From the NCBI GenBank assembly GCA_018302605.1, contig JAGVZN010000010.1, positions 65,013-129,012 of the forward strand: a DNA stretch of 64,000 nt, given 5' to 3'. The translations under genes and the position numbers were made by a program. The notes beneath the pieces were generated by a model. The model had not been told where the DNA came from. It did not search any database and worked only from the letters and a program-made list of their open reading frames with translations. This stretch comes from Candidatus Woesearchaeota archaeon (GTDB lineage: Archaea > Nanobdellota > Nanobdellia > Woesearchaeales > GW2011-AR9). Positions within the stretch are counted from its first letter, which is position 1; the number at the start of each line of letters is the position of its first letter. This document shows, in pieces, positions 4,032 through 57,107 of the stretch.

Positions 4032-4125
4032 GCGGCTGTCGTATAACGGCTAGTATTTGGGACTGTGGAACCTTAGAGGTCGCAGCTATCCCGAGACGGG
4101 AGTTCGATTCTCCCCAGCCGCCCCA
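4032..4125 (+). tRNA. intron-containing tRNA; hand fold gives anticodon GTG (His-like, G-1 at 4031, C73 discriminator, CCA encoded)
   Basis: Acceptor gcggctg/cagccgc. D-stem gtat/gtat with GU pairs. Anticodon stem tggga/tcccg with loop ctgtgg followed by a ~19-nt insert. T-arm gggag-TTCGATT-ctccc. Confidence 0.5.
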
Positions 4126-10592: not shown

Positions 10593-11678
10593 TCACTTTC
10601 TTAGATTTTCCAGAAATTGTTTCTTTTCGTCTTCAGTCAAACCCCAAGCCGTTTCAATCCCATTCTTAATAACAGTATTGACAAAATCATTTCCATACAA
10701 TTTGCCAACCACATAGAGATTATGGGCAAGATCTCCATTTGACCACATTGCCGGATCGTCTGAACTTATCGTCACTGTGACACTCTGCTGCAATAAGTAG
10801 TCAAGGTGAAGATCGGCAATATCACTAATAAATGAACAGGTCAGGTTTGAGATCGGATTCGATTCCAGCCGTATTTTCCTTTCGCGCATCTTTTCGATCA
10901 ACTGTGGATGTTTCCAGAGGTGGATAGCGTGGCTGATACCGTCTGCGCGGAGATCATCAATGGCCGCGGCAAGATTTCTGACCCCCTCTTCTTCCGGACA
11001 CATCTCATCGGCGTGGACCGTGCGTTTTAACGAAGAATCAAACGTCAGGGCATATGCTTCTTTGAATTTTTCAGGCGGGAAAGGTGGTTCGTAGCAGGCA
11101 AGATCGATACCCACAACACCTCTTTCCGAAAAGTTCAATGCTGCTCTCACCATTTTCTTTGCTTCTTCGGGATCAACTTCACGATTGATGCAGATAATTG
11201 GTCTTACCTTCACTCCCTTCTCCTCCCCGCTTTGGGAAAATCCTTCCAACGCATAACCAATAACCTGATCGATCGACAATCCTTGCTGGGTATGATACCA
11301 CGGTGCGAAGCGTGATTCAGCATAGAGTGTTCCTTGGGATTTCAGATAGGTGCAATGGGCGACGGCCATCGCTTTAATATCCTCTTTTGTCTGCATCGCG
11401 CCGACGGGTATGGAAAAGACAGAGACAATGTCATATTTTGTGAACAGATTCGTTTGGAAAGAACGAAGTTCATCGGCTGATTTTATTTCCCGATCTCCCT
11501 CGACGCTTGTTCCATCGATATATTTTTCCGGAAGAAAGAGTTTTTTTCTGTTGTCCTGATAAAATCTCCAAAGATCGTCTGCAGGGATTGAGCCATCCCA
11601 ATGGATGTGGTTTTGAATGGTTGTGCGTCGGTGCAGGGAATCAAGATATTTCTGATCATCGAATTGAAGATTGTTCAT
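10593..11678 (-). CDS. adenosine/AMP deaminase family metallo-hydrolase
   Basis: HIHWDGS (HxHxDG), TVHADE, ISHAIHL and SSDDP motifs characteristic of the adenosine deaminase family. Confidence 0.75.
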   Translation of the reverse strand: MNNLQFDDQKYLDSLHRRTTIQNHIHWDGSIPADDLWRFYQDNRKKLFLPEKYIDGTSVEGDREIKSADELRSFQTNLFTKYDIVSVFSIPVGAMQTKEDIKAMAVAHCTYLKSQGTLYAESRFAPWYHTQQGLSIDQVIGYALEGFSQSGEEKGVKVRPIICINREVDPEEAKKMVRAALNFSERGVVGIDLACYEPPFPPEKFKEAYALTFDSSLKRTVHADEMCPEEEGVRNLAAAIDDLRADGISHAIHLWKHPQLIEKMRERKIRLESNPISNLTCSFISDIADLHLDYLLQQSVTVTISSDDPAMWSNGDLAHNLYVVGKLYGNDFVNTVIKNGIETAWGLTEDEKKQFLENLRK

Positions 11679-13767: not shown

Positions 13768-13882
13768 AAGCTTACGGACGGCCATAGGGGCGCTTGTTAC
13801 CCGTTCCCATTTCGAACACGGAAGTCAAGGGCGTCTCCGTATCGGATTGTACTGCATTCCGCGGGAACTCCGGTAAGCTGTC
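13768..13882 (+). rRNA. rrn5: 5S ribosomal RNA (stand-alone)
   Basis: Contains CCCGTTCCCATTTCGAACACGGAAGTCAAGG (the universally conserved 5S loop/helix segment). Helix I pairs AGCTTAC (13769-13775) with GTAAGCT (13873-13879). Confidence 0.65.
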
Positions 13883-13980
13883 CACCTTTCTTTTTCTCTT
13901 TCTTCCTTTTTTTCTCTTTCTCGCGATTAAGCGAATGGAATGAGCGCATATCGCTTCGCTTTTCAAATGGTGTGACATTT

Positions 13981-14008: not shown

Positions 14009-14060
14009 TTCTTTTCTCTTTCTCCATACTTTTATATAATCTCCAGAATTAAAAGTCTGC

Positions 14061-14960
14061 ATGAATTGGCTTCTCATCGCGTTTGCCGCACCCGCCGTAT
14101 TCGCGTTGGCTAATATCCTTGATAATTATTTCTCCAACAAGATCTTCAAAAGCATCCCCGCGTTAGTCTTTTATGCATCATTATCTAATCTTCTGTTCTT
14201 ACCACTCTTCCTGGTGATCGAACCGCCGGAATGGCCGACGCTCTCCATTCTGCCGGCACTATTGTTTCTCGGGCTGGCAAATTTGCTGTACCTTTTTCCT
14301 TACTACCAGGCATTGCGCCGAGATGATACCAGTATCGTCATCTCTCTCTTTTCGCTGGGGAAGATTTTTGTTCCGGTTCTCGCCTTCTTTATCGTCGATG
14401 AACGCCTCAGCCTGGGGCAGTACAGCGGCATTGCGATCATTATTTTTGCTTCCACCCTGCTGACGCTCAACGGCACAAACGGCGCGGGCAAACTGCGTTT
14501 TAATCAATCTCTGGGATATATGGCGTTAAGCGCGTTCATCGTTGCGTTGGAAACGGTCTTCTTCAAGTACGTGTTTGAAGAAGTGGGCTGGAGTACAGGT
14601 TACTTCTGGGCGCTGATTTTTTCGATCTTGTTTGCTTTCTTTTTTTTCCTGATTCCCGCTTGGAAGAACCAATTGGTCGCTGAATTTTCATCTTTTCGTA
14701 GGAATTTCCATTGGTTTGTCTTAGAAGAATTTTTTACATTTGCCGGGCAAGGCCTGATGACCTTTGCGATTTCGTTAGTGGCCGTTTCGCTGGTGGAAGG
14801 AATTGTCGCTCTTCAACCATTGTTTGTCATAGTCTATGCCCTGATCTTGAGTAAACTGCTTCCGCAGTTATTCAGAGAGAAGATATCAACAGTAGCATTG
14901 TTCAAGAAAGCGATCTTGTTTTTGGTGATGGTGTTAGGTGTTGTTTTACTTTTGTACTGA
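14061..14960 (+). CDS. multi-TM membrane protein, DMT/EamA-like transporter
   Basis: 299 aa with ~10 hydrophobic segments in two halves. Family assignment is tentative. Confidence 0.5.
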   Translation: MNWLLIAFAAPAVFALANILDNYFSNKIFKSIPALVFYASLSNLLFLPLFLVIEPPEWPTLSILPALLFLGLANLLYLFPYYQALRRDDTSIVISLFSLGKIFVPVLAFFIVDERLSLGQYSGIAIIIFASTLLTLNGTNGAGKLRFNQSLGYMALSAFIVALETVFFKYVFEEVGWSTGYFWALIFSILFAFFFFLIPAWKNQLVAEFSSFRRNFHWFVLEEFFTFAGQGLMTFAISLVAVSLVEGIVALQPLFVIVYALILSKLLPQLFREKISTVALFKKAILFLVMVLGVVLLLY

Positions 14961-35445: not shown

Positions 35446-36033
35446 TCATCTGTTCTGTATCTTCATCAACTGCCGCGTGAATGCATAAGTCACGATGATG
35501 AACGTGAAAGAGATGAGCCCGATCAGCCCAAGCAGGATGTAAATGAGTTCTATCTCCGAACGCTCTCGGTTGAGGATGGTCAGCGAGCGTGTCGCCTCCG
35601 TCTCTTTCCCGGCAAATTCTGCCCTCACTCTCAGCTGGTAATTGCCGCTGTTGAGGTAAAGGGGAATATAGATGCTCTTGACAAATGTTCCTGATGTCTG
35701 GACGGCCACCGTTTCGCTCACTTCCAGGACGTCCTCTTGCTTACCGTCTGCCTGTTCGGCCTGAAGAGTATATCTCAAGACAATATCCTCCGGCTTCTCT
35801 AGACCATGATTGACGAGCCGTGTGGACACGACAATCGTCCCGCCCACATTGATCTCGGCAAATTCCGGAAGCAAAGCTATACTAATGCCCAGCGTTGGTG
35901 TGTCATCTCCATTGCTGGACATGACGCTGACGCTTGCTAGAGAGAGCAGCAAAGCGGAGATCAGCAGTATTTTCACGAGTTCATTGTTCTTCTTGTTCTT
36001 CTTTTTACTCTTCATTAGTGTCATTGTGGTCAT
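35446..36033 (-). CDS. small secreted, C-terminally anchored protein
   Basis: 195 aa with an N-terminal basic/hydrophobic signal and a C-terminal TM (IYILLGLIGLISFTFIIV). Overlaps the upstream giant gene by 4 nt. Confidence 0.4.
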   Translation of the reverse strand: MTTMTLMKSKKKNKKNNELVKILLISALLLSLASVSVMSSNGDDTPTLGISIALLPEFAEINVGGTIVVSTRLVNHGLEKPEDIVLRYTLQAEQADGKQEDVLEVSETVAVQTSGTFVKSIYIPLYLNSGNYQLRVRAEFAGKETEATRSLTILNRERSEIELIYILLGLIGLISFTFIIVTYAFTRQLMKIQNR

Positions 36034-39000
36034 CGGGAATGATTCTCCCCATCCTTTTTTTTCTTCTCTTTTCGTGTCATTTCCATCACCGGAAGCCCAG
36101 AGTGTTCATCCTGTTTTTTTTCTTGTTGACTAAATGGGGGCAGAAGATTTTCGATCTTAAAATTCACTTCAGAATCTATTGTGGAAGATAGTTGTTCATT
36201 TTGAACATTCTGAACCCGGAGAAAATCTTTTTTTATTCTCTGTTTATTCTGTGGATAGCTTTCTTGTCGGGATATTTTCTTAACTTTTCTGTTGCTGTTT
36301 CTTGCCGCGCGGCCAGCCCGCCGCATTCCCGTTTTTCTCTTTTTTTGCCATTTTTCCTGGCTGAGACTGAGAACCGCAAACAAGAAGAGGCCCAAGATGA
36401 CTATCTCAAAGATGATCAACGGCAGGTTTTCTTTTCGTTTAGCGATCACGGTAAACGCGGCGCTGGATTCGGCCAGTTTGCTTTCTCCGGTTCTTTCTCC
36501 GTATACTATTTTTGTCTTAATCTGATATTCTCCAATTGGGAGAAGAGGAAGAAAGAGCGCACTGGCCAATTTCTCTTCCCGCCTGACCGCGAGATCCTCT
36601 TTCCATTCTTGGATCAGATCATTGCTATGCAGGAGTTGTATCGTCAAGAGCACTTCGGTGTCAATCTCCGTCCCGCCGAATTTGAGAAAAGTAATTTCCA
36701 AAGGTAGTTCTCGCGTTCCTTCCTCGATTTCCTGCCTGCCGGGCGGGATTGTCAGAATGATGTCAAAGAGTACTTCTGGTTCTTCCGGCCCCGTCCTTTC
36801 CTTCGTGCCGGCCAACGTGACGCATTTTCCCCGCTGCAGCGTCATCCCTTCGGGGCAGACAGTTCCGCCGTCACCGTTTGCCCTGCCGCCTCCGCTGCCA
36901 CCACCTCCTGCCACAACAGTTGTTTCTGCTGCTGCTTCTGCCTGTGTTCCGAGCAAAGCCGAATGATTCAGGCCACTGACGATCAATGTGTTATTATCAT
37001 CACGACAGGAAATACCTTGCTGAGTAATCCCGGAACTGTTGCCCAGGCAAGCGCTGAGATCTGTCTCATCCTCTTCCGTGCACTCCAAACTGATTTCAGC
37101 GAGAGAAGCGATCTCCGCATCTTTGACACAAAACGAAAGGAAAGAATCGTCCGTGATCAACAACGTTTTGGTCTCATTTTCCTGCAGCTGGTCACTGATG
37201 TTGACGATCAGCGCTGTTGCTGTGCGTGTAATGCGGATCCGGCTTAGGTTCAATGTGCTCGTGGAGAAGTTGTGTGAGAAATTGAGAAAAGGAGATGTTC
37301 CATCCTGAAAGAGGATGGTCTGTGTTCCAGTAAAGGTGTTCCCCGTTGGCGGCAGTCCTCCGACCGTGATGTTCAACTGGACAATTCCCGAGGCGGTTAC
37401 GGCAGATTCGTTGCCTAGCAAGGTATCGTTGGCATCCGGAACAAAGTCATTGTCATCGTCTGTTGCATTGACCGTGAATTGGATGGCCGCGGAATTATTC
37501 TGATTGCCCAAGCTGTCATTCGCAATGAAGATGATCGTATACTGGCCAAGAAGCGGCGGGGAGACGAATGATCCATTATAGCGTTCAAGTGTATTCAGCA
37601 GGCTGATGATCTCGTCTGTCCCGTTGGGGTACGTGACGTTTGCCTGTACCTTATCGATGAGTGAGGCATCAGTGACATTGACTGCTAATTCGATTATCGC
37701 CGGATAATCAAAGATACTTCCTGATGTGGGGATAGTTCCCGAAAGAATGGGGGAAAGGGTGTCGTTGACGACAAAAGTGATAGCCGTAACTTTCATATTC
37801 CCCAATGAATCATTGGCAGACAAGCGTGCGGTATATGTGCCGACAGCGCTTAGTGCATCTGAGATCAGCAGTCTGCCGCTGACATTCTCTGTCTGGGCAA
37901 GCAGTGTGCCGTTTGGAAAAGTGAGATTAAAGATAACACTTTGCAGATTGGGATCGGCAGCAGACCAGGTGATATTGACCGCTTCCTCGCCAAGTTTGAT
38001 GGTAGAGTCGTTGAGCGAAAAGATGAGTGTAGGGAGGATCGTATCGTTTACGCTGAATGTGATCTCAGTTTCATTTTTGTTTCCTGCAGAATCGTCGGCC
38101 AGTGCCTGGACTGAGTATATCCCCGAGCTGATGAGTTCTAGCGGCGTGAGGGTAAAGTTTCCAGAATTATTCTCGGAGCTGATGATCAGCGATCCGTTAG
38201 GAAATGTGATGTTGATGAGAGTCAGATTCAGATGGATATCACTGATCTGCCAGGAGAGCAGCAGACTGCTCTGATTTAACTCTGCCGTCGTCGCATTCAG
38301 CGTCAGGTTTATCTCCGGCAACGTCCCATCTACGGTGATCGTCCGCGGTTCGGTCAGGTTGATATTCCCCGAAGTATCATTGACAAACAGGCGGAAGACA
38401 TACGTTCCTTCTGAAACACCGGTCTTGCTGGAGAAACAGAATGTATTCCCTCCTCCCAGTGTTGCTGACTCATTAACCCCGTCTAATTCCAAGCTGCATC
38501 CGCCGATCGCCACGAGATCTTCGATACTGGCATTGATAGTAAAGCTTGTGTTGACAATGGAATTGTTTTCCGGTGTGGGGTTGACAAAGGCAATCAGCGG
38601 GGCGGCAAGGTCTTGACTACTGCTCACCAGGAAGGTTGTGTTTGCCTGCTGCAGCCAGCCGGCAGAATCGTTTGCTTCTGTCCGAAGGAGATATGTTCCT
38701 TCCGCAACAAGCACCGTTGGCGGATAGACCAGCGCTCCACTATTATTATTTGTCTGGATAACCAGCGTTCCATTGGGGTAGGTCAGATTGAAAGCGGTCG
38801 TGTGCAGGTTGCTGTCATTGGCCTGCCAGCTGATGTTGATGGAGTCCGTATTGAATTCTAACACTGTGGCGTTTAGGGAGAGATTTAATGATGGCAGGAT
38901 GGTATCTACAATAAATTCTCTGAGTGCTGTCTGGTTTTCATTACCAGAAGAATCCACTACATATGCCCTAAATGTATGTGCGCCTTCGCCAAGTCCGGAT

Positions 39001-40988
39001 TTAACAGCATGACAGGTTACACTCGCTCCCGAACCGACAGTGGTCATCGTCTCATTCTGGCCGTCAAAAGCAAGCGTGCAGATGTTGATCTCAATATCAT
39101 CTCCCGCGGAGAGATTGACCGTCACCGAACTCGCGTTGACGAAACTGTTGTTGATTGGGGTTGGGCTGATGAAATCAATCGTCGGCAGAGAGACATCTAC
39201 ATCTGTAAACGCCGTTGTTGTTTGGTTACTGTTTCCCGCAGAATCGTTAGCCATCGCCCGCACGCCGTAGACTCCGGGAACGATCAATTCGCTGGGACTT
39301 AAGATCAGCGGCAGGGAATCGTCGATCGTCTGGATGAGCATGGTTCCATTCGGGAACGTTACGTTGAGGACTTTTGATTCCAGATTTGTATCCTGCGTGG
39401 TCCAGGTGATTGTCGCCGTCGTCCCCACCAGCGGCACGGTAGTGACATTTATTGTCACGTCCAGCGCCGGGTTGATCGTATCCACGGTAATCGTCCTTGT
39501 TCCCGTTTGGTTTTCATTGCCAGAAGAATCGTTGGCATAAGCTTTGTAAGTATGCGTTCCTTGCGCTAATGCTGTTTTTGCCAGATTGCAGCTTACACTC
39601 GCGCCTGAGCCCACGTTGGTCATCGTTTCGTTGATGTCATCAAAAGTTAACGTGCATCTGCTGATCGCTACATCGTTTTCAGCGGTGATGTTAATCGTCG
39701 CCGTCGTGCTATCCCAAAAAGTGTTATTTCCCGGAGTAGGATCGACGAAATCAATTGTTGGTGGGTGATTATCCGTCACGGTAAACGTGGTGTTCGTCAG
39801 GTTTGTATTTCCTGCCAAATCATTTGCTTCTAATCTGACCAGATATGTTCCTAAACTGGTCAGAACTGCCGGGGGATAGGATATCTCCCCGCTGTTGTTG
39901 TTCGTTTCGGAGAGGAGTGTTCCATTAGGAAGCGTCACATTCAGTGCGGTCATCTCGAGATGTGTGTCATTTACCAGCCAGCTGATCTTAATTGAATCCT
40001 GTCCCAAGATCAGAACGGATGTATTCACAGAAAGATTTAATGAGGGATACGTTGTATCAACCGTAAATGTTTGCGTCTGTGTCTGGTTCTCGTTCCCGGT
40101 GGAATCGTTAGCATAAGCTTTGTAAGTATGCACGCCTTCCGCTAATGCTGTTTTTGCCAGATTGCAGTTTACACTCGCTCCTGAGCCTACTTCTGTCATC
40201 GTCTCATTGACACCATCAAAAGTTAAAGTGCACGCGGCAACTTCACTGTTGTCTGTTGTCGAGATATTGACCGTGGCCTGACTCGTATTCAGAAAAGTAT
40301 TGTTGGCCGGAGTTGGATCAACGAAGTCAATAGCTGGTGTTGTAGTGTCTGTGCTCGATGTGTAGGTCACATTCAAGGTCAGGACATCAAAAATCCACGT
40401 CTTCGCTCCCGTCCCCCCTCCAGTCCGCTGCGCCTGCGCTTTTGCCAGCGCTCTCGTTGTTCCCGCGGCAAAAAACTGTGTACAATTCCATGATTCGCTG
40501 GCCGTCACGTTGATGCAAGTCACTCCTGCCGCTTCCGCCGCAAGGCACGCGGCAGAAGAGTCCGTCCAGGATGCGCCGCTATTGGCATCAATACCAACCG
40601 TACAGATGTGATTCGCGACATCACAGGCGGCTGTGCTGCACCAGAACTTATAACAGAGCGAGACTGATTTTACGGAAGCACAATCAGTGATGCTGCTATT
40701 GAAATACGTTCCTTGCACCCCTCCGTAACTATGATTGGAACCGGCGCGATACGAATCCCCCGTCTCGGCACTGGCATCATCGCAGAACAAGCGATCGCCG
40801 GTATCTTGGCAGATTGCTGGATATGTCCCTGCGCAGCTTACGTCAAAGAGATTTTGAGTCTGCTGAGTTGTCTGCCGCGCGCAGCTCTGGGCATGAATTT
40901 CGGTCATCGCTGCTTGTGTAAATGCTGCTAATCCCAACAGCAATAAGAGTAGAACTATCTCCTTGCTCCTGACGCGTCCTTTTTTCAT
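36030..40988 (-). CDS. giant cell-surface protein (1652 aa) with Cys-rich N-terminus, tandem Ig/PKD-like repeats and C-terminal TM anchor
   Basis: Signal peptide. At least four ~190-aa repeats (CTLTFDGVNETMTEVGSGASVNCNLAKTALAEGVHTYKAYANDSTGNENQT...). Many N-x-S/T sequons, a Gly-rich linker, a C-terminal TM and a Lys/Arg tail. Confidence 0.75.
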   Translation of the reverse strand: MKKGRVRSKEIVLLLLLLGLAAFTQAAMTEIHAQSCARQTTQQTQNLFDVSCAGTYPAICQDTGDRLFCDDASAETGDSYRAGSNHSYGGVQGTYFNSSITDCASVKSVSLCYKFWCSTAACDVANHICTVGIDANSGASWTDSSAACLAAEAAGVTCINVTASESWNCTQFFAAGTTRALAKAQAQRTGGGTGAKTWIFDVLTLNVTYTSSTDTTTPAIDFVDPTPANNTFLNTSQATVNISTTDNSEVAACTLTFDGVNETMTEVGSGASVNCNLAKTALAEGVHTYKAYANDSTGNENQTQTQTFTVDTTYPSLNLSVNTSVLILGQDSIKISWLVNDTHLEMTALNVTLPNGTLLSETNNNSGEISYPPAVLTSLGTYLVRLEANDLAGNTNLTNTTFTVTDNHPPTIDFVDPTPGNNTFWDSTTATINITAENDVAISRCTLTFDDINETMTNVGSGASVSCNLAKTALAQGTHTYKAYANDSSGNENQTGTRTITVDTINPALDVTINVTTVPLVGTTATITWTTQDTNLESKVLNVTFPNGTMLIQTIDDSLPLILSPSELIVPGVYGVRAMANDSAGNSNQTTTAFTDVDVSLPTIDFISPTPINNSFVNASSVTVNLSAGDDIEINICTLAFDGQNETMTTVGSGASVTCHAVKSGLGEGAHTFRAYVVDSSGNENQTALREFIVDTILPSLNLSLNATVLEFNTDSINISWQANDSNLHTTAFNLTYPNGTLVIQTNNNSGALVYPPTVLVAEGTYLLRTEANDSAGWLQQANTTFLVSSSQDLAAPLIAFVNPTPENNSIVNTSFTINASIEDLVAIGGCSLELDGVNESATLGGGNTFCFSSKTGVSEGTYVFRLFVNDTSGNINLTEPRTITVDGTLPEINLTLNATTAELNQSSLLLSWQISDIHLNLTLINITFPNGSLIISSENNSGNFTLTPLELISSGIYSVQALADDSAGNKNETEITFSVNDTILPTLIFSLNDSTIKLGEEAVNITWSAADPNLQSVIFNLTFPNGTLLAQTENVSGRLLISDALSAVGTYTARLSANDSLGNMKVTAITFVVNDTLSPILSGTIPTSGSIFDYPAIIELAVNVTDASLIDKVQANVTYPNGTDEIISLLNTLERYNGSFVSPPLLGQYTIIFIANDSLGNQNNSAAIQFTVNATDDDNDFVPDANDTLLGNESAVTASGIVQLNITVGGLPPTGNTFTGTQTILFQDGTSPFLNFSHNFSTSTLNLSRIRITRTATALIVNISDQLQENETKTLLITDDSFLSFCVKDAEIASLAEISLECTEEDETDLSACLGNSSGITQQGISCRDDNNTLIVSGLNHSALLGTQAEAAAETTVVAGGGGSGGGRANGDGGTVCPEGMTLQRGKCVTLAGTKERTGPEEPEVLFDIILTIPPGRQEIEEGTRELPLEITFLKFGGTEIDTEVLLTIQLLHSNDLIQEWKEDLAVRREEKLASALFLPLLPIGEYQIKTKIVYGERTGESKLAESSAAFTVIAKRKENLPLIIFEIVILGLFLFAVLSLSQEKWQKKRKTGMRRAGRAARNSNRKVKKISRQESYPQNKQRIKKDFLRVQNVQNEQLSSTIDSEVNFKIENLLPPFSQQEKKQDEHSGLPVMEMTRKEKKKKDGENHSR

Positions 40989-48619: not shown

Positions 48620-49097
48620 GTTTAAGTTCCTCATAAATCTCCAGCAACGCATCTTTATGCCCCCAGCCATCACAACTGTTATCAATAATAGAATCTAATC
48701 TTCCTTTAAATTTTGGTATTAAATCAGAATTATTATTTAACATCTTAATTATCTGCTCAAACATGGTTTCCATACTGGAGTAAAACGCTTCATACATATC
48801 GCCGTATTCATGATCAATCTTTTCTCCATTTTCAAGATAAAAAATCATTAATTCCAAAAGGTGCTCTTGATTTTTAGATATTTTCTTAAAGTCAACGAGT
48901 GCTTTTCTTGCTTCACGAAGATTTGTCTTTTCCTGCCACAAAGCCTCTTTTATTTTTTGTTTATAATAGGTTATAGCCTCATCGGCTCCACTTTGCAGTT
49001 TTAACTTTAAGAAATCAGCATTTTCTTTTCGTAATGAAGATAATTCTAAAAGAAGCGCGTATAATTCTTCTTTTCCTAATTTTTTGAGTTCTTTCAT
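48612..49097 (-). CDS. hypothetical protein (161 aa)
   Basis: Its ATG overlaps the stop of zinc-ribbon gene 1 (ATGA at 49094-49097). Confidence 0.5.
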   Translation of the reverse strand: MKELKKLGKEELYALLLELSSLRKENADFLKLKLQSGADEAITYYKQKIKEALWQEKTNLREARKALVDFKKISKNQEHLLELMIFYLENGEKIDHEYGDMYEAFYSSMETMFEQIIKMLNNNSDLIPKFKGRLDSIIDNSCDGWGHKDALLEIYEELKHD

Positions 49098-49213
49098 TGC
49101 AGGATCTTGTCAAAACATTTATCGCACATACCGACGTGCCATTCTTTATTATGTGCAGAGATTTTGGCACTGCATTGTTTGCAGTTGTAATTCATCTCTT
49201 CGGTGTTCTTCAT
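49094..49213 (-). CDS. small zinc-ribbon protein (39 aa), copy 1
   Basis: MKNTEEMNYNCKQCSAKISAHNKEWHVGMCDKCFDKILQ (CxxC...CxxC). Stop overlaps the next gene's start. Lies inside a ~180-nt direct repeat. Confidence 0.55.
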   Translation of the reverse strand: MKNTEEMNYNCKQCSAKISAHNKEWHVGMCDKCFDKILQ

Positions 49214-49257
49214 GTGAATGGTACGTTCTTTTACCGGTGAGGGTGGTTTGGGGCATA

Positions 49258-50127
49258 TTATTTTGGCTTATCCTCCAATTCTTCCGTTTCTTTCTCTAAT
49301 CTTTTCTTCTTTGTTAAATCTAGGTGATTTTCTGGAGAAATAACTTTAATTCCGAATGTTTTTTCGGCATCAGCTCTCGCTCTTCCAGCAACTTTTCCGC
49401 CTTCTTTGGCCGCATCCAATCCCTCAGCAAAGCCTTGAACTTCTTTCTTGCGCGTAGCTTCGGTGGTAAGCCTTTCACCGAGCATTGAAAAAATTAACTC
49501 TAAGTCATTCATGTGATCTCTGAGATTTTGATTTTTGAATTTTGGATCAAGCCTTTTTATCTCTTTGTGAATCTTTATAGGTACTCCAAAAGTAGCCTGA
49601 GAAATCTCGTTGGTTAAAATGGCGTATTCTCTCAGCTCTCCAATACCCCTTTTTTTCCATTCCTCAGTCAATTCCTGTCTGATGGCAATGCCTCTTAACC
49701 TCTTATCAATCCAATCTTTAGGATAGCCTTTAAGCTCATAATATTCTTTAGCTCTATCTTGTGCTAATTCAGGATTTTCAATCTCTTGAATGCGTTCATA
49801 ACCAACTTGTGCCAGCCAGCGCTTGAATGGCTCGACTTTCTTAGAGGGAATCGATTGGATTAATCTTAACATGGTCTCCGTATTTGCACTGTCAGTCTCC
49901 CTTAATTTACCATCTTCTGCTGGCATTTTCAACAGTACGATTTTATCGTACGGTTCAAATCCTTCTTCTAGAAGCTTAGCTTTTAGGTCAGACCAATATC
50001 TTTTTGGAAGGGAACTGTCTGTCAAGACTGCTACAATATCTATGACGGAGAAGTGCCATTCCTCTTTGTGCCATAACCGGCGAATGTTTTTGCCTTCAAA
50101 GATAACTAAAGCGTTTTTTTGATTCAT
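49258..50127 (-). CDS. Bro-N domain protein (phage antirepressor-like), paralog 2
   Basis: N-terminal Bro-N-like IRRLWHKEEWHFSVIDIVAVLTDS...LRLIQSIPSKKVEPFKRWLAQVG. ~50% identical to the ORF at 51596-52453. Confidence 0.65.
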   Translation of the reverse strand: MNQKNALVIFEGKNIRRLWHKEEWHFSVIDIVAVLTDSSLPKRYWSDLKAKLLEEGFEPYDKIVLLKMPAEDGKLRETDSANTETMLRLIQSIPSKKVEPFKRWLAQVGYERIQEIENPELAQDRAKEYYELKGYPKDWIDKRLRGIAIRQELTEEWKKRGIGELREYAILTNEISQATFGVPIKIHKEIKRLDPKFKNQNLRDHMNDLELIFSMLGERLTTEATRKKEVQGFAEGLDAAKEGGKVAGRARADAEKTFGIKVISPENHLDLTKKKRLEKETEELEDKPK

Positions 50128-50249
50128 TATTTTTCCACCATCTTGTCAAAACATTTATCGCACAGATTGGCGTGCCATTCTTTATTATGTGCAGAGATTT
50201 TGGCACTGCATTGTTTGCAGTTGTAATTCATCTCTTCGGTGTTCTTCAT
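50127..50249 (-). CDS. small zinc-ribbon protein (40 aa), copy 2
   Basis: MKNTEEMNYNCKQCSAKISAHNKEWHANLCDKCFDKMVEK. Its TAA overlaps the Bro-N paralog-2 ATG (TAATG). Confidence 0.55.
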   Translation of the reverse strand: MKNTEEMNYNCKQCSAKISAHNKEWHANLCDKCFDKMVEK

Positions 50250-50344
50250 GTGAATGGTACGTTCTTTTATCTTCTGGCAATTCTTTTCCGGTGAGGGTGG
50301 TTTGGGGCATATTATTTTGGCTTATCCTCCAATTCTTTCGTTTG

Positions 50345-51370: not shown

Positions 51371-51595
51371 TTTTCTTCTCCGGTGAGGGTGTTGGGGGCA
51401 TTTTATTCTCTTTTGACATCTCTTTCCACCTCTTTTTTAACTATTAGGAATTTCCGAATAGTTGATTGCTCATCTAATTCTTGATGTCTGCTTCTATTTT
51501 TGCTTATCTGATAAAGTCATGAAAGTGCGGGCAAGTCTTTTCTGTATGAATACCACAACAGCTTAATACATTGCTGACCAGACATGAATAATGAT

Positions 51596-52517: not shown

Positions 52518-52799
52518 TTATCTAATCCCAAACTTCTTACAAATGAGACACTTATTATTTCTCCAAGAAAATGTTCTCTTCTGCCACTCTTCATCTGAAA
52601 GGTTGCAGATAGTCTTATCAGATCGAATTAGAGTAAGGAATTTGTTGTGCGTCATCTCAACTCCTCGCATTTTCTTGGCCAGTTCCTGTAGTTTAGGAAT
52701 ATGGTCTTCTTGACGTTGTTCATCAAGATAGCATTTTCGAGTGCAATAATTACCATAGTACCAATTAACAAGTTGTTGGATAGGAACGGCTTTTTTCAT
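52518..52799 (-). CDS. small Cys-rich (zinc-finger-like) protein
   Basis: 93 aa with a CTRKC...CLICKKFG cysteine pattern. Overlaps the upstream gene by 4 nt. Confidence 0.4.
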   Translation of the reverse strand: MKKAVPIQQLVNWYYGNYCTRKCYLDEQRQEDHIPKLQELAKKMRGVEMTHNKFLTLIRSDKTICNLSDEEWQKRTFSWRNNKCLICKKFGIR

Positions 52800-53431
52800 T
52801 CCAACCTCCTTTGCATCTTTCTTTTGGAGGTTTCTGCAAGTCTTCCCTCTTCAGCTGCTCTTTTCCGTTGCAACTTTTGAATATCTTCTTCGGCGGGGAG
52901 ATTTTCTGGAACAATTTTATTTTTTAGTAAAACTTTTCGCATTTCGCTATTATTCTTTACGTGTTCTCCAGTTATTCGAATCTCTCCCTGAAGATTATTC
53001 TGCTTTACCTTAAAGTTAGTAATTTCTGTTGCGAGATTTTTGGCAGCGATGGTCACTGTTGGCAAGAAATCAGCTAATGGCCTGCTCTTTGGGATTTCTA
53101 ACTTCTTTTTCATTTGCGAAGTGTTCAAACCGCCGAATAACGCTTCATCCCCTTTGCTTCTGATTCGGGCAAAGCCGTTTTCGTCAACTCCTCGTTCATA
53201 AATTAGCTGAGATAACTCCGTTTCGGCTGCGATGAGCTTATTTCGAGCTTCAAGCCTTTCTCCTAAAGCTATCCTCTGCTCGATTATCTCCTGTTTTCTG
53301 GTTTGAACAGCAAAATAACTCTGGGCAAAGGCAATTTGTTCCTTTCTGGGATCGCCATTTTGAGCAATAAGATAGCAGGCATAGCGGGTAAGCATGAAAT
53401 CGTCTATTTCTTTTGTTGCTCCTTTCGGCAT
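52796..53431 (-). CDS. DinD/antirepressor-like hypothetical protein
   Basis: 211 aa. AQSYFAVQTRKQEI and the coiled-coil C-terminus resemble DNA-damage-inducible protein D-like and phage antirepressor C-terminal regions. Assigned from memory only. Confidence 0.4.
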   Translation of the reverse strand: MPKGATKEIDDFMLTRYACYLIAQNGDPRKEQIAFAQSYFAVQTRKQEIIEQRIALGERLEARNKLIAAETELSQLIYERGVDENGFARIRSKGDEALFGGLNTSQMKKKLEIPKSRPLADFLPTVTIAAKNLATEITNFKVKQNNLQGEIRITGEHVKNNSEMRKVLLKNKIVPENLPAEEDIQKLQRKRAAEEGRLAETSKRKMQRRLE

Positions 53432-53654
53432 AGCTATCGTTTTGTTGACGCCAACAAAATGATCTTCAATTCTCTGTTGAGATTTGTAACAGGAAATCTT
53501 AGCTTTTTCAATGACTTTTAGAAAATTCCTCCATTCATCATAGTCTAAAAGTAATGGTTTCTTTTTTCATTTAGATTCAAAGAAGAGGGTGGTATATAAA
53601 TATCATTTGTGGACTTGACCAGTGGGGAGTGGGTTCTCGATGCGTTGTTGAGAA

Positions 53655-54008
53655 GTGAAGATGATCCGGCTGGATTTCAAGAATCTGGGCGTGAACGGTC
53701 TCTACGGCTACAGTCAGGGTGGAAAAGTGGTTGTCTCTGCCAAAGACAGTGTGAACACGCAGGTAAACACGCTGGTTCATGAGATTACGCATGAACTACT
53801 CCATCACCCCAGTGATCTTACAGAACAGCAGAAAGAGATTGAGGCTGAGGGAACGGCGTACGTGGTGTGTAAGCATTTTGGTCTTTCGACCAAGAGCTTC
53901 ACCTATCTGGCCATGTACAAAGCTGACTCCAAAGAGATCATGGCTCATTTGGAAGCGATTGCGAGGGCGAGTAAGGAGGTGATTGAATTTTTGATTTTTA
54001 TTTTTTAG
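53655..54008 (+). CDS. ImmA/IrrE-family (DUF955) zinc metallopeptidase-like protein
   Basis: HEITHELLHH HExxH motif in a ~117-aa protein. GTG start. TATA-like GGTATATAAAT sits 60 nt upstream. Confidence 0.5.
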   Translation: MKMIRLDFKNLGVNGLYGYSQGGKVVVSAKDSVNTQVNTLVHEITHELLHHPSDLTEQQKEIEAEGTAYVVCKHFGLSTKSFTYLAMYKADSKEIMAHLEAIARASKEVIEFLIFIF

Positions 54009-54045
54009 ATGTAAGAGTTTTTCTGTTTGCATTATACATAGCTTT

Positions 54046-54114
54046 TTGGAAGTTAAATTTTTCGATTTGGAAGTTAAATATTTGTAACTTGGAAGTTAAG
54101 ACCAAACTTTATAT
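54046..54114 (+). promoter_or_regulatory. three phased direct repeats TTGGAAGTTAA(A/G) followed by a TTTATATA box
   Basis: Repeats at 54046-54058, 54067-54079 and 54089-54100 (21-22 bp period). TTTATATA at 54107-54114 lies ~24 nt upstream of the ATG at 54138. Confidence 0.45.
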
Positions 54115-54137
54115 AACGCCTAGTTTCTCCTCTAGTC

Positions 54138-54278
54138 ATGTCAAAAAAGATGGTGGCTGATAGTCCTAATAATTTTACCTTTACTGCATTAAGGGGCATC
54201 CAAGCAGGCAGAGAATATTATGCCGTAATGTGTCCTCTACGACTTATCCCACGAATGTTCTTGTTTAATGTTTCATAA
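54138..54278 (+). pseudogene. N-terminal fragment of a DGQHR/DndB-like domain protein (46 codons)
   Basis: MSKKMVADSPNNFTFTALRGIQAGREYYAVMCPLRLIPRMF matches, from memory, the conserved N-terminal RG-Q-G-R-YY...MCPL region of DndB/DGQHR proteins. The reading frame stops after 46 codons. Confidence 0.35.
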
Positions 54279-54369
54279 AATCCTTCAAATTCATGTTCTT
54301 GAAAGCCATTCATTAATTTTTGTTTGTTCATTTTGTATTTCACGGTGTTTTCTTTTAAATGTTTTAAAT

Positions 54370-55830
54370 CTATCTTATTCTATTGATTTTTCCTAACTCT
54401 CCCACAATCCAAACCATCGCTTCTGTATCCCTTTCACAATAGCGAAGCAAGTCTTCCCTGATCTTCTTTCTAGCTGAAGCAGTCAGTTCACCAAATGTCA
54501 TATCTAAGTAGGCAATAGAAGCACAATCTCCATCTTTAATATCCAAACCTTCATATCCTTTCCCTACCAGAGCAGGTAGAACTTTCTTGATGGAAGCAGA
54601 GCCTTTCTGCTTGGGGTTGTAATAAAGGAAATCCTTAAAGGGTTTATACAAATCAACAATCCTTCCTAAGAGAACATCAACCCAGGCTGTATATTCTGGA
54701 AAATCTTTTACTAACTCTTTCAATACTGACCCCTCAAAGCCTTCAAAGTACACTAATACGCTTCCAGAAGCAGGTAAATATTCTTTCAAAGCCGCCAGAA
54801 ACTTAGGTCGAGGATCATCCTTGCCATCGTGCAGGTACTCAAAATGTTTCGTTTTACCATTCTCAACTACATGCAGAGAAAACTGAAACGGCATCCGTTG
54901 ATACGGTCTTGTTCCCTGAAACTCAGGAACTGCAAACGAACACGTTTCAAAATCAAGATGGCAGGCTGGTTCTCGAATTCCATCTAAAAATTTCTTAATT
55001 CTAGCCTTCTCGAGATGAATCTCACCACTTTTCTCACATTTTAATTGAATAACTTGTTGCTCATTAGACAGAACATCATCAGGAACATCTTTCAAAGCAT
55101 GAATTCCTTGCTCAAATAGTTTCATACTTTTTCTGCTGTTATACAAGTGAAAGACATGATTCTCAGGTAGAAAACCCCAACACTCTTCCTTCACTTGGCA
55201 CTTTTTTGGGATAGTGCAGTAATTCTTCTCTGCACTATTTGGGAAAGTAGGGGAATTAACAATACCCCACAGAAATTCAATATTCTTTGGTACTTCATAC
55301 TGCAATTCTTCTACATCTTCGGTCAAATCCTCTTGGACAAATAGTTTATGAACATCAATTTCTCCATCTCGAACGTATTGATTATTCAACAGCAGAAGAA
55401 AGCATTTTCTGATCTTCAAACCAGCTTTTCTATAGACGTATAATTGAAATGATAAATCCCAGTAATGGTCCTTCTTAATTTTGCTACTGCTTTTGACTTC
55501 AATAATATCCCATTCATCTTTACCCACAGGAACGAGAATATCCGCTCTGCCATAGAGGTTATCTACTTGCAGAGCGGCTTCAAAGAGAATTTTTCGTTTT
55601 TTGAGCAGTTCTTTTGATTTCTGAATATTTTCAAGATAATCTGCTTCGGGAATATCGATTCCCTGAGGAAAGAGTTTCTTTGCCCATTGTCCGACGATCC
55701 TTCCTTGTTCAAATCTTCTCAGAACGCCGGGTGAATGGGGAGGAATATTTTCTTCATCATGATACTTCATCCATAGGTGTCCCGGGCATTCCATTCCTGT
55801 TGTGTAATCGGATTTGGAGAGTGGTTTCAT
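54370..55830 (-). CDS. DUF2779-family protein: N-terminal PD-(D/E)xK (Cas4/RecB-like) nuclease domain plus C-terminal DEDD-like exonuclease domain
   Basis: LSKSDYTTGMECPGHLWMKYH, ADILVPVGKDEWDIIEVKSS (D...EVK) and HLDFETCSFAVPEF...RPYQRMPFQFSLH. Confidence 0.65.
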   Translation of the reverse strand: MKPLSKSDYTTGMECPGHLWMKYHDEENIPPHSPGVLRRFEQGRIVGQWAKKLFPQGIDIPEADYLENIQKSKELLKKRKILFEAALQVDNLYGRADILVPVGKDEWDIIEVKSSSKIKKDHYWDLSFQLYVYRKAGLKIRKCFLLLLNNQYVRDGEIDVHKLFVQEDLTEDVEELQYEVPKNIEFLWGIVNSPTFPNSAEKNYCTIPKKCQVKEECWGFLPENHVFHLYNSRKSMKLFEQGIHALKDVPDDVLSNEQQVIQLKCEKSGEIHLEKARIKKFLDGIREPACHLDFETCSFAVPEFQGTRPYQRMPFQFSLHVVENGKTKHFEYLHDGKDDPRPKFLAALKEYLPASGSVLVYFEGFEGSVLKELVKDFPEYTAWVDVLLGRIVDLYKPFKDFLYYNPKQKGSASIKKVLPALVGKGYEGLDIKDGDCASIAYLDMTFGELTASARKKIREDLLRYCERDTEAMVWIVGELGKINRIR

Positions 55831-56326
55831 GTACGTATTAATTCCTCTGTTTTGTTGATGAAATCTAACACTTTGTCTTCGTAGTCTTCTACCATTTCCC
55901 TGCTAAACTTAATATTTGTGGCATAACTGGCTTCATGCCTGTCCTCTTTAAGGTTGGTGTAGAGTTCTGCATCCTCTTTGCTTATAGACAGTTCATGTAA
56001 TAGTTTTGCTTCATCTTTCGTGATAGAATATTCCTGGATAAGGATTAGAATTGTGGCATAGTGATTTTTGGAGGAATAATTTCTATTTGTAATGAGTGCC
56101 AAAGCACAATGGTATATGCGTAATATAACGTTACAATAAGCCAATCATTGAATTTGTGGTGTTCTTTGTTTAGTTTGTAGAATTCCAGATTATGCCTTGC
56201 TTTTTTAAGATGAGAGTTCACCAATTCTTTGTTTTCTTGAATCTTTTTGATATGCTTTTTGGTAATGAAGAAGTCTAGCTCTTGTCCTAAATATTTTTGG
56301 TCTGCAAATAATTTATCAATATTCAT
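55827..56326 (-). pseudogene. HEPN-domain toxin gene split by a frameshift
   Basis: The first frame (56326-56045) carries the N-terminal helix. The second frame (56144-55827) carries ILRIYHCALALITNRNYSSKNHYAT...KEDRHEASYA, a HEPN R-x-H...Y-like C-terminus. The two overlap over 56045-56144. Confidence 0.5.
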
Positions 56327-56906
56327 TTAGAATAACCTCATAGAAATTTTGTTCTTTGTGAATGGGGAAGCCTGTTTTTCTCGCTTGCATAATCAGATCA
56401 TCTTTGTTCTTGATAAATTGATCCGTAGTTGTTTGAAATAGGGAGAATGGATATTTTGAGGTTATTTCGGCTTCTTTTTTATTTTCTGTTAAGTCTATTT
56501 TTTTATTAGCTACTATCAATAGGTCTATATCACTTCTGTTTTGTTCTTCCTTTCTGGAAGTTGAGCCAAAGATGATGATAGTATACGTTTCTGTAGGGAT
56601 ATTTTTGAGAAAGTTTCTGAGGGGAACTTTTACTCCCAGGTTTAAGCGGTTGAACTTTTGCATTGCTATTTCTGAAAATTTAAGAGCAAACAGTTTCTTA
56701 TCTTTTACTTTATAGAAAGTATTTGATTTAGTTTTTTCTTGGTTCAGGGTATTATTTCTTACCAGTTTTGTTAAGGTATTGGTTAAAGAGCTGTCGGAGA
56801 GCTGGGAGAGTTCTTTTATCTCGTTGAAGTATAAACTATTCTTTTTGCTTTCAAAATACGCGTGATATACTTTATCTTCTGGTTTCAGTTGTTGGGGGAT
56901 TTTCAT
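56316..56906 (-). CDS. minimal nucleotidyltransferase (MNT) domain protein, cognate partner of the HEPN gene
   Basis: IIIFGSTSRKEEQNRSDIDLLIV (GS...SDxDLL NTase motif). Overlaps the HEPN start by 11 nt. Confidence 0.6.
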   Translation of the reverse strand: MKIPQQLKPEDKVYHAYFESKKNSLYFNEIKELSQLSDSSLTNTLTKLVRNNTLNQEKTKSNTFYKVKDKKLFALKFSEIAMQKFNRLNLGVKVPLRNFLKNIPTETYTIIIFGSTSRKEEQNRSDIDLLIVANKKIDLTENKKEAEITSKYPFSLFQTTTDQFIKNKDDLIMQARKTGFPIHKEQNFYEVILNEY

Positions 56907-57004
56907 TTTAGACTGATACGGGGGGATTATTTATAAACACTTCTGTTTTTGGAGTGATTACTCCTGTTTTTGTGGTTTACTTGTTCAAATCGTTGGAGAA
57001 CAAT

Positions 57005-57107
57005 GGAACGGCGAGGCGGAATATTTTCTTTATCATGATACTTCATCCATAAGTGTCCTGGACATCCCATGCCGGTGGTGTAATCTGATTTGGAGAGTGG
57101 TTTCATG
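57005..57107 (-). pseudogene. duplicated 5' fragment of the DUF2779 gene
   Basis: 57016-57107 is ~88% identical to 55743-55830. It encodes MKPLSKSDYTTGMGCPGHLWMKYHDKENIPP...VLQRFEQ and then diverges and terminates. Confidence 0.6.

Follow-up and report, generated by a model that had tools for sequence, protein, structure and literature searches.

DndB proteins are already known to act on their own promoters. The DndB of Salmonella enterica Cerro 87 occupies two TACG-N10-CGTA sites upstream of its gene and represses the phosphorothioation operon dndBCDE, and a conserved cysteine of the protein is important (PMC4507180; the regulation is restated in PMC6186775). The dndB promoter of Streptomyces lividans carries an inverted repeat, called R1/R2 there, together with phosphorothioate sites; this element has a positive effect and is not thought to bind DndB (PMC6186775). 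In archaea, dndBCDE clusters are found in less than 1% of genomes (PMC8569181). Here we describe a repeat-bearing dndB promoter in a Candidatus Woesearchaeota archaeon (GenBank contig JAGVZN010000010.1, positions 65,013 to 129,012). This whole stretch of 64,000 nucleotides is called the window below, and positions are counted from its first letter. Positions 54046-54278 are probably the relic front end of a dndBCDE(A) phosphorothioation operon, consisting of three operator units, a promoter with a transcription factor B recognition element (BRE) and TATA box, and 44 codons of dndB; in the intact system the units would have been bound by DndB, and the rest of the operon would since have been deleted or replaced.

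The three units are exact copies of the 11-mer TTGGAAGTTAA, spaced 21 and 22 bp apart (Table 1) and found alike by direct reading, a repeat finder and a pattern search. Tandem Repeats Finder assigns the block a period of 22 and 2.5 copies. No fourth copy was found in the 64 kb with one mismatch allowed, and we estimate the chance of three exact 11-mers within 54 bp at about 1e-7 for the window. The promoter box that follows, TTTATATA, starts 19 nt after the start of the proximal unit, and the 8-nt gap between the two would hold the BRE. The window is archaeal, since genes for a thermosome and a proteasome-activating nucleotidase are encoded in it. With 10 copies in the window, where 1.7 would be expected, the octamer is enriched, and it also stands 29-30 nt before other start codons (14031 to 14061, and 53600 to 53571 on the minus strand). 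For these reasons it is reasonable to read the box as a TATA element serving an mRNA with little or no leader, the 30-nt distance to the ATG being typical of leaderless messages. As expected for an archaeon, the region contains no sigma-70 promoter-like or hairpin-terminator-like sites. An initial annotation of this DNA had placed the repeats at exactly the positions given here; the promoter box that it had put at 54107-54114 is present, one base further on, and the ATG, the 46-codon open reading frame (ORF) and its translation agree with the ORF list.

The peptide encoded behind this promoter is the N-terminus of DndB, as had been recognised at the outset. Its conserved segment, F.A.RG.QAGREYY..MCPL..IP..F.F, matches the start of the DndB profile and retains the conserved MCPL cysteine; the final two codons and the stop are without homology. 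It scores 31.1 bits against Pfam DndB PF14072 (cut-off 29.1, profile positions 1-30 of 338), reaches E-values of 7e-13 with TIGR03233 DndB (positions 3-35 of 355) and 1e-13 with the PADLOC DndB model, and aligns with positions 1-27 of 276 of the DGQHR profile TIGR03187. An exhaustive phmmer search over 1.84 billion representatives returned 184 hits; among the matches listed, the best stretches end at query residues 40-45, nearly all of them at 44, and the closest N-termini are 81-88% identical. At that point intact relatives continue as IPRMFLFN-E(L/S)EIPP.LRAQR and the window reads IPRMFLFN-V-S-stop. The ORF ends after 46 codons and holds neither the DGQHR motif nor the full DndB domain of about 340-380 aa; by its sequence it is a fragment of a dndB gene and not a DndB protein.

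Nothing else of the operon was detected in the window. Searches with tblastn using six full-length DndB proteins matched it only at 54138-54272, and those with DndC, DndD, DndE and DndA of relatives matched nowhere in the 64 kb. The order of dndC (PAPS reductase-like), dndD (SMC-like ATPase) and dndE after dndB, present in relatives with the same promoter, is absent. Past 54270 the window agrees in register with its closest homologue, L034, at 23 of 45 nt (51%), with two stops within; this signal reaches p ~0.002 against L034 and is not significant against L016, L050 and L060. Because similarity beyond 54270 is so faint, a junction zone is given in Table 1 and not a continued homology. The stump and junction are identical in two ENA contigs (L002, L003) and a JGI contig (L014), and in L001 as far as a scaffold gap allows. 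The same junction in four independent metagenome assemblies means that the truncation is not a one-off assembly error, which had been raised as a possible explanation.

Table 1. Features of the dndB relic and its immediate neighbours (window coordinates)
Feature	Position	Strand	Remarks
Peptidase_M78 (ImmA/IrrE-like) ORF, stand-alone	53661..54008 (ORF from 53655/53661)	+	HEITH; PF06114
R1, distal operator unit (putative), TTGGAAGTTAA	54046..54056	+	11-mer also precedes intact dndB genes
R2, TTGGAAGTTAA	54067..54077	+	21 bp after R1
R3, TTGGAAGTTAA	54089..54099	+	22 bp after R2; ends 8 nt before TTTATATA
Putative archaeal TATA box, TTTATATA	54108..54115	+	Starts 30 nt upstream of ATG
dndB 5' stump, 46 codons	54138..54278	+	Residues 12-44 homologous to DndB N-terminus
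Junction zone, end of dndB homology	54270..54320		Solid to 54269/54270; weak in-register similarity to ~54315
DUF2779/Cas4-like nuclease gene	54370..55830	-	PF11074 137.5 bits, Cas_Cas4; convergent with stump

The same repeats stand before intact dndB genes of other archaea. In one set of searches loci were picked by the similarity of their DndB and not by the motif. The DndB of L034, which is closest to the stump, found 28 loci among the GTDB species genomes, and only the closest of these, a Nanoarchaeia metagenome-assembled genome (L060, 63-65% identity), carries the motif, as two units and a degenerate third in 21-bp phase. A large protein database, with roughly 7,000 DndB homologues in all, holds many DndB relatives at 60-70% identity, and four of them with DNA were compared (L089, from a Woesearchaeota genome, L090, L091 and L092). 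All five of these close relatives (L060 included) have (T/A)TGGAAGTTAA-like repeats upstream of an intact dndBCDEA operon. In L091 the geometry is identical to that of the window (repeat, 8 nt, TTTATATA, 22 nt, ATG), and the 19-nt distance from the start of the proximal repeat to the start of the TATA box is shared by L091 and L090. In eight of nine archaeal-type promoters the proximal repeat and a TATA-like box have their starts 19-22 nt apart, so that the box fills the slot of the next phased unit. Two or more repeated sites directly upstream of dndB are conserved among these relatives, and the initial annotation's view of the locus as the promoter/operator and 5' stump of a lost defence gene is borne out by the profile hits and by these intact operons of the same layout.

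The neighbours upstream of the repeats vary a good deal from locus to locus: genes of 295 and 730 aa (L016, L034), a DUF1232 gene (L091, L092), a dnd-associated module that includes dnd_assoc_4 (L090), a methylase island (L089), and an ImmA-like gene in the window. The only gene that accompanies the repeats throughout these very different contexts is dndB. In L089, L090 and the contig of P0170, a helicase, a small ORF, an SMC-like ATPase and a PF27807 (DNA_S_mod_dnd_assoc_4) protein flank the archaeal dndBCDEA genes. This recurrent dnd-linked module is presumably the restriction partner; its absence from the window fits the loss of a whole dnd system.

The opposite approach began with the motif: a metagenome collection was scanned for pairs of the 11-mer separated by 9-12 nt. 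This gave 50 loci, 11 of which have the pair less than 100 nt from a dndB start. Ten of the dndB genes are complete or truncated solely by the end of the contig, and the remaining locus, L014, is that of the window itself. In L016 and L040 the repeats are followed by a canonical dndB-dndC-dndD(-dndE-dndA) operon, with dndB at its head. L016, L017, L034 and L050 carry the pair in the same orientation as the window, and when the same-orientation promoters are aligned, the two repeats are the sole invariant blocks upstream of the coding region. The 39 loci without dndB are for the most part tandem arrays of low complexity and of the GAAGTTAAG type, or else their repeats lie in unrelated DNA.

Phased repeats are also found at dndB promoters outside this group. 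A direct repeat of at least 11 nt at 19-23 bp spacing is present in 18 of 29 dndB promoters selected by protein, against 1.2% of shuffled sequences. The dndB promoters of Pelagibacter have a TTGTATGTT(A/G)AA unit at the same position and in the same phase, and those of gamma-proteobacteria have TGTTCGTACG(A/T)ACA or TTTGTACAAACA in two or three copies, 20-22 bp apart. These repeats resemble the window's in position, copy number (two or three) and 20-22 bp phasing, and differ from it in the sequence of the unit. We know of no experimental description of the gamma-proteobacterial or Pelagibacter repeats. In the gamma-proteobacterial promoters L066-L087 the unit TGTTCGTACGAACA is itself palindromic and contains GTTC/GAAC, which is the phosphorothioation consensus of the Dnd system of E. 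coli and Salmonella (PMC4507180); this hints at a coupling of operator occupancy and modification. A blastn search of E. coli genomes with the Enterobacter dndB promoter gave no match. The dndB promoter of E. coli B7A, reached through a search with a dndD fragment, has the TACG-N10-CGTR pair, with the two sites 44 bp apart. The 11-mer TTGGAAGTTAA was not found in the dnd literature of a searchable library, and no DndB structure was found in the PDB by sequence.

Since the repeats travel with dndB and not with the ImmA-like gene, the likeliest binder is DndB itself, lost here, and not a repressor paired with the ImmA-like protein. More generally, an element that stays with dndB while its other neighbours change is likely to be read by a factor that the operon encodes. 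In the intact system, DndB would bind phased units that lie two helical turns apart, which would place the bound protein on a single face of the helix. The proximal unit stops 8 nt short of the TATA box, where the BRE is expected, and the next phase slot is taken by the TATA box itself, so that occupancy would exclude transcription factor B and the TATA-binding protein and repress dndBCDE, as DndB does in Salmonella. A deletion or replacement would then have removed dndB from codon 45 on, together with dndCDE(A). With DndB gone from the window, the operator would be orphaned and the promoter probably de-repressed and constitutively open. The orphan promoter would yield only a short RNA with the 46-codon ORF, ending at oligo-T runs (54313-54356) that lie between the stump and the convergent DUF2779/Cas4-like gene, and this RNA would face the 3' end of that gene.

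Several points weigh against this account. The choice of DndB as the binder is carried over from the Salmonella work (PMC4507180), and the window's units are direct repeats unlike the sole footprinted DndB site, the palindrome TACG-N10-CGTA, which is absent from the window sequence. The DndB of E. coli B7A is 52% identical to DndB of the TTGGAAGTTAA type and yet has a different site; the class of motif does not simply track overall DndB similarity. In six of the loci from the motif scan (L025, L027, L037, L040, L044, L048) the pair is in the opposite orientation to dndB. The phage-like contigs L012 and L018 carry phased repeats without dndB. An 81-aa ORF lies beside the operator in L089, divergent from dndB, and in the contig of P0179 a ribbon-helix-helix (RHH) gene precedes dndB; either product could be another regulator. 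Finally, the convergent order of the stump and the DUF2779 gene fits a deletion, or an inversion plus a deletion, alike, and the end of dndB homology defines a junction zone, not an exact breakpoint. As a separate observation, some of the six opposite-orientation loci have a third, inverted copy, which gives the palindrome TTGGAAGTTAA-at-TTAACTTCCAA.

The most direct alternative is that the repeats are a conserved dnd control element bound by a regulator other than DndB, such as a small RHH or helix-turn-helix (HTH) protein that some dnd islands carry, or a host factor that activates the archaeal promoter from upstream. Archaeal activators often bind upstream of BRE/TATA, which is where these sites lie, and the RHH gene and the divergent 81-aa ORF just mentioned would be candidates; the positive element of S. 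lividans is a further case in which a dndB-promoter repeat is not thought to bind DndB. Against this stand the fact that dndB alone accompanies the repeats through very different contexts, the change of upstream neighbours (295/730-aa genes, DUF1232, dnd_assoc_4, ImmA) from one locus to the next, and the experimentally established action of DndB on its own promoter (PMC4507180). We regard another regulator as unlikely, and DndB binding, which we infer, as the better explanation of the repeats.

The gene upstream of the repeats had suggested a second kind of regulator. ImmR/ImmA of ICEBs1 and IrrE/DdrO are protease-repressor pairs, and the initial annotation had proposed that the repeats could be bound by a repressor paired with the ImmA-like protein, which would make the locus an ImmR/ImmA-type switch for the downstream gene. 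The gene itself is as described: an HExxH ORF, scoring 23.7 bits with its family against a cut-off of 22 and thus marginal. It ends 37 nt before the repeats on the same strand, and in this the arrangement resembles the two pairs, where an HExxH M78 ORF would likewise adjoin a repeat-bearing promoter. Unlike in them, no repressor gene adjoins the ORF here: the search for an HTH partner found none among the neighbouring genes, which are a Bro-N/DinD-like gene and the dndB stump, and nine small ORFs gave no Pfam hit. Nor do the repeats co-occur with ImmA-like homologues. The M78 ORF has ten detectable homologues at 55-79% identity, set among restriction-modification genes or beside Bro-N and RhuM genes; neither dndB nor the repeats were found beside those in L004-L008, and no ImmA-like gene was found at the loci with an intact dndB and repeats. 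The proposed switch has next to no chance of being right. The M78 gene is, on this comparison, an unrelated neighbour in the same defence island, outside the dnd relic, and gene flux within the island best accounts for its position next to the stump.

Two further observations concern this gene. In L006-L008 the homologue is split in two and lies beside a fragment of RhuM and a subunit of a type I restriction system, so that the small M78 gene appears to be often degraded in such islands. One homologue, P0001, has at least 69 aa more on its upstream side, from which came the idea that the ORF is the C-terminal domain of an ArdC-like protein. This was rejected, as there was no ArdC-N Pfam hit and BLASTP with the upstream out-of-frame peptide gave no alignment.

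The relic lies within a low-GC island at about 48.1-59.0 kb, bounded by a transketolase and a pyridine-nucleotide disulphide oxidoreductase. The island is rich in defence and mobile-element genes (Bro-N, RhuM and toxin-antitoxin genes among them), several of which are damaged. In such a setting three phased repeats in AT-rich DNA could be taken for iterons of a replication origin, or for end repeats of an integrated mobile element, that lie beside the stump by chance. Similar triple repeats are indeed found in the phage-like contigs (L012 at 2217-2290, L018 at 11245-11297), where three TTGGAAGTT(A/C)A units in 21-bp phase occur with a NinB-like gene and phrog_13625; these might have nothing to do with dndB, might mark an origin, or might mimic the dndB operator. 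In the window there is no adjacent replication initiator, integrase or transposase, and the island genes that were scanned include no member of a Rep-like family. In at least nine independent loci the repeats stand in a fixed geometry to the TATA box and the start codon of dndB, which marks them as a promoter element, and we give the iteron or end-repeat explanation hardly any credence.

The intact state of what is left raises the question of whether it still has a use. It would be a long shot that the orphan operator, promoter and stump are active and reused, and that GGAAGTTAA repeats at 21 bp are a DndB operator which moves with dnd operons in horizontal transfer and has perhaps been copied by phages (L012, L018). 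If this were true, the constitutive promoter could make a 46-residue DndB N-terminal peptide or a short convergent transcript that modulates the DUF2779/Cas4-like gene; alternatively, the three units could be a decoy that titrates the DndB of incoming dnd-carrying elements. A related explanation is that the relic has been kept by selection for one of these roles (the peptide, the antisense or convergent transcript, the decoy). No defect is seen in the three repeats, the TATA box or the 44 codons, the 45 nt that follow match the closest homologue at only 51% in register and hold two stops, and the locus is identical in four assemblies. Identical copies, however, provide no variation on which selection could be tested; the unevenness of decay is weak, reaching its p-value with one homologue and failing to do so with three others; and the intact state would follow just as well from a deletion that is recent. 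Maintenance by selection is very improbable, and a relic left by deletion or replacement is the preferred explanation.

The gene that faces the stump may have been a neighbour of the operon from the beginning, as DUF2779 genes also adjoin intact dnd clusters in two relatives. These are the contigs of P0173 and P0186 (JGI 3300072015), in which DUF2779(/Cas4) genes adjoin intact dndBCDEA. In the P0173 contig the DUF2779 gene is directly upstream of the dnd cluster on the same strand, which may show how the genes were ordered before the window was rearranged.

Other parts of the island show signs of change as well. At 53552/53553 the window has 80 nt fewer than the sister contigs L002 and L003, inside the Bro-N/DinD-like gene (52796-53431, minus strand), which encodes 284 aa in those contigs and a 211-aa ORF in the window; the difference is either population heterogeneity or a second decay event. 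The 5' end of the DUF2779/Cas4-like gene (55739-55831) has a second copy, 89% identical, in a 59-aa ORF at 56927-57106 (minus strand). The two copies enclose a gene for an MNT nucleotidyltransferase (56316-56906) and a pair of HEPN-like ORFs that overlap (56045-56326 and 55827-56144). It looks as though an MNT/HEPN cassette came into the 5' end of the DUF2779 gene by insertion or recombination. Direct repeats of about 200 nt, 95-97% identical, are found at 49097-49289, 50133-50343 and 51373-51398; these intergenic repeats adjoin consecutive minus-strand genes (PDC-S13-like, RhuM, Bro-N), which suggests tandem duplication or exchange of cassettes. Elsewhere in the window, Rfam places a 91-nt tRNA, probably with an intron and missed by ARAGORN, at 4032-4122, and a 5S rRNA gene at 13774-13886. 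A 1652-aa ORF at 36030-40988 was considered as DptH and rejected, being an Ig-domain surface protein.

Taken as a locus, the relic is the ordinary decay of a known system in a defence island, and no new kind of system is revealed; it would record the loss of phosphorothioation from the defence island of a DPANN archaeon. What is new is modest, namely a conserved candidate operator motif of archaeal dndB genes and an apparently general architecture of phased repeats, which together would be a variant of the known DndB autoregulation. The candidate operator, short and sharply conserved, is (T/A)TGGAAGTTAA; before intact archaeal dnd operons it stands next to BRE/TATA as two or three units spaced at 21 bp. 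Phased repeats whose sequence is specific to the clade prove to be common at dndB promoters. The result is a concrete model of possible repression of an archaeal promoter by DndB, and the motif can serve as a sequence tag for the starts and remnants of dnd operons in metagenomes.

The closest comparison is with the dndBCDE (dptBCDE) operons of Salmonella and E. coli B7A. As in the window, several sites occur in the promoter just ahead of dndB, spaced by a multiple of about 21-22 bp; dndB opens the operon that is controlled, and the stump keeps the MCPL cysteine of these proteins. The Salmonella sites are 18-bp palindromes at a sigma-70 promoter, whereas the window has direct 11-bp units, in twos or threes among its relatives, at an archaeal BRE/TATA. 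Binding of DndB has been shown in Salmonella; in the window the operator is a predicted one, and the gene of its presumed regulator has been destroyed. Streptomyces lividans is similar in that dndB expression is controlled by repeats beside the core promoter; its element differs in being inverted and positive and in showing no sequence similarity to the window's repeats.

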